In this document: one piece after another, positions 11,471 to 11,734 of the stretch | How the letters are laid out: each line of letters starts with the position of its first letter | Position numbering within the stretch: the stretch's first letter is position 1 | Source of the DNA: an uncultured Myxococcales bacterium | GTDB taxonomy: Bacteria > Myxococcota > UBA4151 | Length of the DNA stretch: 16,761 nt | Assembly: GCA_964013405.1 (NCBI GenBank) | Contig: CAXGWI010000072.1 | Span: 1 to 16,761 of the forward strand | Direction: 5' to 3' | Notes under the pieces: generated by a model | What the model saw: only the letters and a program-made list of their open reading frames with translations | What the model was told of the DNA's origin: nothing | Databases searched by the model: none | Made by a program: the position numbers and the translations under genes

Positions 11471-11734
11471 TTAGACGTGCTCGACGCCGATCTTCTTGAC
11501 GTTGGACTTCCAGACCTTGTCACCCAACCAGTCGGGGGCGTTGGCGGGCTTGTCCACCTCGTTGCGCTCGCCCTTGAAGACGTGGACGCGGTTGGTGCCG
11601 CGCTCACGCAGCCGGATGTCGGTGATACCCCGGGCCGCAGCCTTGAGGGCAGCGCCGCGGGGCTGCTTGCTGGAGAACACCGTGGCGGTGTCCTGACCAT
11701 TCTTCAGGAGGACAAAGTTCTTCTTATCAGACAT
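11471..11734 (-). CDS. Non-histone chromosomal protein MC1 family (archaeal-type DNA-bending protein)
   Basis: 87 aa, MSDKKNFVLLKNGQDTATVFSSKQPRGAALKAAARGITDIRLRERGTNRVHVFKGERNEVDKPANAPDWLGDKVWKSNVKKIGVEHV. Matches recalled Methanosarcina MC1 motifs NFVL, VFTGKQPRQAALKAA, IRLRERGTKKVHVF, P-x-W-(M/L) and VKK. GGAG RBS 6 nt before ATG 11734. Confidence 0.93.
   Translation of the reverse strand: MSDKKNFVLLKNGQDTATVFSSKQPRGAALKAAARGITDIRLRERGTNRVHVFKGERNEVDKPANAPDWLGDKVWKSNVKKIGVEHV

Follow-up and report, generated by a model that had tools for sequence, protein, structure and literature searches.

The chromatin protein MC1 is described as archaeal and viral, and an mc1 gene on a contig assigned to an uncultured Myxococcales bacterium raises the questions of whether the gene truly belongs to a bacterial chromosome, where it came from, and what its product does there. 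The window, by which is meant the whole 16,761-nt stretch of DNA that was analysed, carries mc1 together with the features below, where G000 denotes this genome and G001 a second genome of the same genus.

8877..11312, minus strand: downstream neighbour, about 811 aa, no match in the Pfam scan
11384..11425, minus strand: intrinsic-terminator-like hairpin and T run, 46 nt after the mc1 stop, conserved in G001
11471..11734, minus strand: mc1 coding sequence, 87 aa plus stop, 99% identical in the congener G001
11735..11870, minus strand: 5' leader with the presumed promoter, conserved to about 90% in G001 and holding short A/T tracts
11741..11744, minus strand: Shine-Dalgarno-like GGAG, 6 nt before the ATG, kept in G001
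11903..11917, plus strand: sigma54-type -24/-12 site pointing away from mc1, one match against 0.01 expected
12056..12682, minus strand: upstream neighbour of about 200 aa, hydrophobic over a stretch at its N-terminus, no match in the Pfam scan

Translation of the window at 11471-11734 gives a basic protein, P0001 (pI 10.2, with 18 K/R against 10 D/E), that matches the Pfam MC1 profile (PF05854) with an E-value of 4.2e-29 and 101 bits (cut-off 23) over profile positions 1-95 of 96. Pfam gives MC1 alone, with no match of P0001 to HU/IHF (PF00216) or to the histone fold (PF00808), and an NCBIfam search returned no match. The sole sequence match in the PDB is MC1 itself (1T23/2KHL/2NBJ, E 5e-17). 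The AlphaFold model (pLDDT 91) has the five strands, one helix and long arm of the MC1 fold, and its top Foldseek match is again 1T23 (probability 1.00, TM 0.49), with an E-value of 7.9e-3 that fails the bar of 0.001 set for that search; in the ESM Atlas, P0001 finds MC1 clusters only, plus one viral cluster under 0.9. The first-pass annotation of this DNA, which had named an 87-aa basic MC1 protein and proposed the Pfam search as a check, is thus borne out by a full-length match above the curated cut-off and by 1T23 heading both the PDB and the Foldseek results. The gene is a small, single-domain, single-gene unit with its own ribosome-binding site and a terminator-like hairpin. Two such proteins, from Myxococcales and Deltaproteobacteria bins, already bear the NCBI label 'chromosomal protein MC1', so that the sequences are public.

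The roles of individual residues in DNA bending are described for Methanosarcina MC1 in passages of PMC6776556 and PMC3928310, and P0001 keeps the bending residues as R26 (Arg25 in Methanosarcina numbering), P67 (Pro72), W69 (Trp74), K81 (Lys86) and V84 (Ile/Val89), together with the equivalents of Gln23, Pro24, Lys30, Lys81 and Lys85. The annotation had named the KQPR motif and the arm Trp as retained; the equivalents of Gln23, Arg25, Lys30, Pro72, Trp74 and Lys86 are conserved in 68/68 distinct bacterial MC1 sequences. Changes relative to Methanosarcina MC1 are Gln26 to Gly, Arg71 to Ala, Met75 to Leu, Arg88 to Gly and Ile89 to Val; an Arg71Ala mutant MC1 bends DNA slightly more than the wild type, according to a passage of PMC3928310. 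The change at Gln26 breaks the Pro24-Lys30 helix start, described as invariant for Methanomicrobia and Halobacteria. Position 26 is Gly in 68/68 bacterial rows, in 36/37 Poseidoniales rows and in 0/48 others, and it is Asp in all 14 other archaeal rows (14/14), so Gln26 is not family-wide. The loop (LP3) after AALKAAxRG is, as the annotation had it, shorter than in the Methanosarcina protein, by six residues relative to 1T23; the short loop is also present in Methanothrix and Poseidoniales MC1s and hence is not specific to bacteria. By analogy with Methanosarcina MC1, a P0001 monomer would sit on the concave face of DNA and show little sequence preference, while Arg26 would neutralise the compressed major groove, Pro67 and Trp69 of the arm would enter the minor groove, and Lys81 and Val84 would read A-tracts, with a sharp V-turn as the expected outcome.

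That an archaeal or viral fragment was misassembled or misbinned into a bacterial genome is exceedingly improbable, and this reading is largely refuted, even though every carrier is metagenome-assembled and 4/4 sister-genus genomes are without mc1. G000 (3.9 Mb, 94% complete, 0.71% contaminated) has one MC1, and the contig has a GC content of 0.606 against 0.607 for the genome and a tetranucleotide correlation with the genome of 0.957, the 27th lowest of 158 contigs. In the independently assembled G001 the gene order is the same to the left and to the right of mc1, with neighbours that are 63-90% identical, and at other mc1 loci the neighbours are bacterial (lepA, SLT, RNase III, tatA, flagellin, recJ). 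GC, tetranucleotides and the order in G001 thus reveal no chimeric join, and a composition typical of the bacterial bin upholds the annotation's placement of MC1 in a myxobacteria-like genome; the bacterial DUF4215 neighbours that it had claimed are seen in three of the eight other window proteins submitted to the Pfam scan. DNA sequencing runs gave only short pieces over the window, none spanning the whole stretch. Comparison with relatives shows that G001 keeps the mc1 site, and that G002, of the sister genus, has an orthologue of the downstream neighbour (68-77% identical) that is preceded by another gene, which we take to be permease-like, with no mc1 between; the upstream neighbour is present in G001 alone among five relatives (1/5). 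A viral or plasmid vehicle for mc1 was considered and rejected: there was no phage match, the six plasmids are all haloarchaeal, and the one viral locus is of Methanosarcinia type.

HU-family proteins are near-universal, with 92.8% of bacterial genomes given as carriers in a passage of PMC10627809. Whether HU and IHF are present in G000, a point raised by the annotation, can be answered: IHF is, and HU is not. A six-frame HMM search finds three HU/IHF-family genes only, namely IHF-alpha, IHF-beta and a divergent paralogue, each of which has a sister-genus orthologue; the family numbers three genes in G000 and G001, and four in G002 and G003. The fourth gene of the sister genus has HU-beta as its best NCBIfam match, at 66 bits against an HU equivalog cut-off of 157, so that the label 'HU' denotes best match, motif and tree at a score far below that cut-off; its closest kin is a type of HU with an insertion that occurs in both phyla considered below. 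HU is absent from G000 by tblastn as well as by the six-frame search, in a pair of genomes (G000 and G001) that are 93-94% complete, and no histone (PF00808) was matched in G000. Synteny extends over 11 other genes around the HU site, whose two flanking genes are separated by 713-717 nt, start to start, in G002, G003 and G004, as against 182 nt in G000 and 160 nt in G001. HU was likely lost from this site in G000 and G001, although the difference could instead reflect a gain in the sister genus. Since IHF is present and HU absent, MC1 is likely a replacement rather than an add-on. As a separate observation, the divergent paralogue (L265, which is G000:C168, with L268, L272, L276 and L296) is family-specific, carries an arm-tip insertion, occurs in all five genomes read, and is 99% identical between G000 and G001.

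Synonymous sites in mc1 are unusually alike in the two genomes that carry it. MC1 of G000 and G001 differs by one amino-acid and 13 synonymous changes, or 0.16 synonymous differences per identical codon (13/83 codons); the same measure is 0.38-0.55 for six ribosomal genes, 0.49-0.60 for three IHF-type genes, 0.50-0.65 for five neighbours and 0.55 for the divergent paralogue. The sister-genus HU, compared between G002 and G003, gives 0.23 (23/100 codons) against 0.50-0.63 for comparison genes, and MC1 in G000 and G001 shows this same HU-like synonymous conservation. Scored for resemblance to the codon usage of 22 ribosomal genes, MC1 falls in the 99th percentile and the divergent paralogue in the 39th. 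The GC3s of mc1, 0.88, is the highest among 3021 called G000 genes (ribosomal genes, 0.69), and in G001 its excess over the neighbours (+0.24) surpasses that at every other one of 73 loci; a general GC3 excess of mc1 across carriers was rejected, with 36/73 above their neighbours. Exact-match contigs that cover mc1 and extend at most about 70 nt into its leader (to 11778-11803) occur in 4/4 marine RNA libraries (three samples, two studies), contigs that speak for presence, not level or strand, and whose uncovered parts are uninformative on expression. Among 26 small basic genes of G000 with ribosomal-like codons, judged by eye on crude gene calls, no other nucleoid protein was recognised.

Within the phylum of G000, MC1 occurs in 2/401 genomes, both of this genus, and in a second, neighbouring myxobacteria-related phylum it occurs in 49/401 sampled genomes, with 30/182 of one class and 19/25 of one order. 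A GTDB scan with P0001 as single query found 28 loci (16 bacterial-titled, seven Poseidoniales-type, two Methanotrichaceae and three other archaea). Among archaea, MC1 is present in 61/61 Poseidoniales genomes and in 41/41 genomes of the class of Methanothrix; Micrarchaeota, considered as the source of mc1, were rejected, 1/151 genomes carrying MC1. An SLT/TPR gene flanks mc1 in 26/68 bacterial loci, and lepA in 20/68. The eight SLT-group genomes with usable RpoB form one clade (100), and because its main splits match those of the MC1 tree, mc1 is inherited vertically within this group; the RpoB row of G404, an unreliable long branch, was ignored. In the SLT-mc1 clade (L188-L196) the RpoB frame runs to about 1650-1720 codons and contains a large insertion close to profile position 360. 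Several carriers titled Rickettsiales, Enterobacterales or Pseudomonadota (L005, L007, L010, L012, L019, L021) have genomes of 5.5-9.7 Mb with about 70% GC, and those of them placed by RpoB (G402, G409 and G412) fall with myxobacteria-related genomes, so that the titles look wrong. Among 52 longer matches, five proteins (P0200, P0204, P0345-P0347) fuse MC1 to PF01871, which we take to be AMMECR1, and five (P0356, P0357, P0359, P0361, P0368) fuse it to PF03050 transposases, presumably IS66.

The fate of HU in other carriers was followed with an HU-trained profile run on 70 genomes, HU being read from the matches listed. A 19-genome MC1 subclade of the SLT group has no HU-type gene among the matches listed in 18/18 genomes examined (all matches being read in six), and 16 of the 19 have at most two family matches, while another one has six, all IHF; as few as two or less are seen in 2/19 MC1-negative genomes of the same phylum. 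HU is kept in 6/8 genomes of the sister subclade, and an HU-type gene in 19/24 other MC1 carriers. Among 19 MC1-negative genomes, 14 have an HU-type gene, G441 has only IHF-alpha and IHF-beta (two matches), and four are unsettled. MC1 usually coexists with HU and, since most carriers keep HU, does not force its loss; loss of HU is indicated twice on an MC1 background, which is too few for a statistic and is best taken as a lead.

Phylogenies were built from 162 MC1 rows, reduced to 154 after identical and duplicate loci were dropped, and from hand-chosen subsets of 69, 47 and 56 rows, the last two with long branches excluded; the root on haloarchaeal-type rows is an assumption, and groups are named from sequence type, not record titles. 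In four trees, bacterial and Poseidoniales MC1s form one group against other archaea (93; 98/92; 94/93; 91/93). The kinship with Methanosarcinales or haloarchaea that the annotation had implied is not what emerges, as the nearest archaeal relatives are Poseidoniales and those nearest the G000 copy are bacterial, and its proposed inter-domain transfer stands in part: the data bear out an archaeal-type chromatin protein in a bacterial host, but the event is not a lone one, given the carriers in the neighbouring phylum. The alignment, with 87 columns, is too short to fix the direction of transfer: bacterial monophyly (p 0.31, 0.25) and a grouping of Poseidoniales with Methanosarcinia (p 0.165) both survive the AU tests. 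Poseidoniales nested inside bacteria, at first supported (80/91 and 86/76), was discarded when the arrangement dissolved with more Poseidoniales rows. MC1 would have crossed once between archaea and myxobacteria-related bacteria, as the clade common with Poseidoniales suggests, and then spread among these bacteria. L095 (G917) and L103 (G914), which are Poseidoniales MC1s from the locus usual in that order, group with a bacterial subtype (95/93; L026, L027, L037, L040, L044, L048, L069). Carriers of this subtype are scattered over three parts of the RpoB tree, and the grouping may reflect a second exchange between domains. A wider scenario, in which MC1 runs the chromosomes of several myxobacteria-related lineages, at least two of which discarded HU, and Marine Group II regained MC1 from them, the protein having crossed domains both ways, is put forward tentatively, the chances being rather against it.

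How the copy in G000 reached its genus can be read in more than one way. Direct receipt from an archaeon, Poseidoniales or Methanothrix, with no bacterial intermediary, would accord with a median identity of 0.70 to Poseidoniales against 0.68 to bacteria, with a 16-residue stretch identical to a Methanotrichaceae MC1 (L017), and with one tree that leaves the copy unplaced within the clade of bacteria and Poseidoniales. Its closest relatives, however, are bacteria of the other phylum (0.79 and 0.76 identity, against 0.72 and 0.68 for archaea), two careful trees place it, starred, among bacterial rows (97/92; 99/90), and it has the Gly at position 26 that 0/26 Methanosarcinia rows possess, so that a direct archaeal origin is considered unlikely. 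Because the nearest relatives are bacterial (79% versus 72%), the last step to the genus was likely a transfer from bacterium to bacterium, and because the GC3s excess is not general to mc1, a GC-richer donor is the simplest reading; the ancestor of the genus would have received mc1 in this way, with HU loss coming afterwards. The GC-rich codons and low synonymous divergence could instead mean that G000 and G001 acquired mc1 recently, from outside or one from the other, mc1 then being a young passenger gene, as might be suspected from a GC3s that tops all called genes and exceeds the ribosomal value, from the codon differences, 9/14 of which shift towards a final T or A in G001, the AT-richer genome, and from the restriction of MC1 to two genomes of the phylum. 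Yet mc1 occupies the same site in G000 and G001, the conservation there comes in patches (leader, gene and terminator high, spacers low) and not as one uniform tract, HU shows equally low divergence in the sister genus where it is a long resident, and P0001 is at least 21% diverged from any sequence beyond its closest metagenomic kin, all of which makes a recent arrival decidedly improbable.

What the protein does is a related question. Two assemblies agree in MC1 family membership, bacterial context, conservation, and absence of HU at a syntenic site, and the reading preferred here, which we regard as probable though far from assured, is that P0001 shares the DNA bending of archaeal MC1 and serves here as the main nucleoid protein, HU having become dispensable. 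MC1 could also be an accessory or DNA-protecting protein of stress or stationary phase, the absence of HU being a coincidence, with its work covered by IHF, by the divergent paralogue or by some other protein that escaped recognition. Such a role would agree with the carriers that have HU beside MC1, with G441, which seems to be without both proteins, and with Methanosarcina acetivorans, in which, according to a passage of PMC13729102, cells can do without the MC1 genes, and recovery from stress is influenced by them. On the other hand, the divergent paralogue is ordinary in both codons and synonymous divergence and coexists with HU in the sister genus, the HU-like signature of selection is found in MC1 alone, and the small basic genes with ribosomal codons yielded, by eye, no other candidate. 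An accessory role is accordingly a serious contender with perhaps a minority share of the probability, and MC1 as main nucleoid protein is retained as the better account.

Several known systems bear comparison. MC1 of Methanosarcina thermophila CHTI55 (1T23, 2KHL, 2NBJ; PF05854) is like P0001 in family, fold order, size and basic charge, and differs in its archaeal host and in the longer LP3. The MC1s of Poseidoniales (Marine Group II) share with the bacterial ones a common clade, Gly26 and the short loop; PMC7613761 describes them as gained through transfer by a lineage whose ancestral chromatin proteins were lost and, in the archaea-only tree of Fig. S2, as nested in Methanosarcinales. Once bacterial rows are added they group with bacteria, unlike in that tree, and a bacterial intermediate for Poseidoniales MC1 is possible. 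HTa of Thermoplasmatales, a bacterial HU acquired by histone-less archaea (passages of PMC7613761 and PMC13729102), is likewise a cross-domain swap of chromatin proteins and a mirror image of this case, where the traffic runs from archaea to bacteria and HU is the protein that is absent. Bacterial histones (Bdellovibrio Bd0055) are, in the passages of PMC10627809 that treat them, another "non-bacterial" chromatin protein of predatory-type deltaproteobacterial lineages, patchy and present in 1.86% of genomes; their fold is unrelated and their abundance experimental, whereas MC1 here is known from sequence. Mimivirus gp275 (bioRxiv 10.1101/2024.02.22.580433) is an MC1 domain outside archaea that also serves DNA condensation, and differs from P0001 in being viral, longer and oligomeric; the tree in the main text of that paper is without bacterial rows. 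The annotation had allowed that MC1 might already be described as widespread in this lineage. No report of bacterial MC1 was found in the full-text literature (subscription papers being outside that scope), a term search of PMC11894785 gives no 'MC1', and the passages covered include bioRxiv 2020.09.16.299958; MC1 genes themselves are common in several myxobacteria-related lineages. P0001 is a genuine representative of a known family, in a domain of life for which the family was unreported, and likely fills the role of HU. A bacterium with MC1 and without HU is a natural test of the exchangeability of nucleoid proteins, as proposed in a passage of PMC7613761, the exchange of MC1 for HU being the reverse of the known swap of HU for histone in Thermoplasma, and it reopens the source of the chromatin protein in Poseidoniales, which are among the most abundant marine archaea.

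A GGAG/GAGG/AGGA word precedes 64/69 bacterial mc1 starts (a count without shuffle control). The leader is conserved in G001 whereas the synonymous sites of the neighbours are saturated, and no sigma70 consensus was found in the leader and promoter region; a promoter common to bacterial mc1 genes was rejected, sigma70-like sites numbering 2/69 versus 2.07 in shuffles. Given the terminator-like hairpin, mc1 is likely monocistronic; the hairpin search found one against 1.0 expected by chance, so the hairpin is weak alone. The sigma54-type site is conserved in G001, three such sites occur genome-wide, and among bacterial mc1 loci it is near mc1 in G000 and G001 only. At 11903-12030 (plus strand; also in L089, 11379-11500, plus strand), this perfect site faces some 100 nt of conserved non-coding sequence with a 6-bp GC hairpin at its end; the stretch may be a small RNA, two sequences being too few for covariation, and Rfam gave no match to it beyond one at chance level. 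Two phased A-tracts lie at 11840-11860 (plus strand), just upstream of the mc1 leader, and as MC1 prefers A-tract DNA (a passage of PMC6776556), autoregulation of mc1 is conceivable. Farther off, at 2055-7271 (plus strand), a 1738-codon open reading frame with no Pfam match is 87% identical in G001, and its terminal domain gives the impression of resembling the tail of large myxobacterial secreted proteins.
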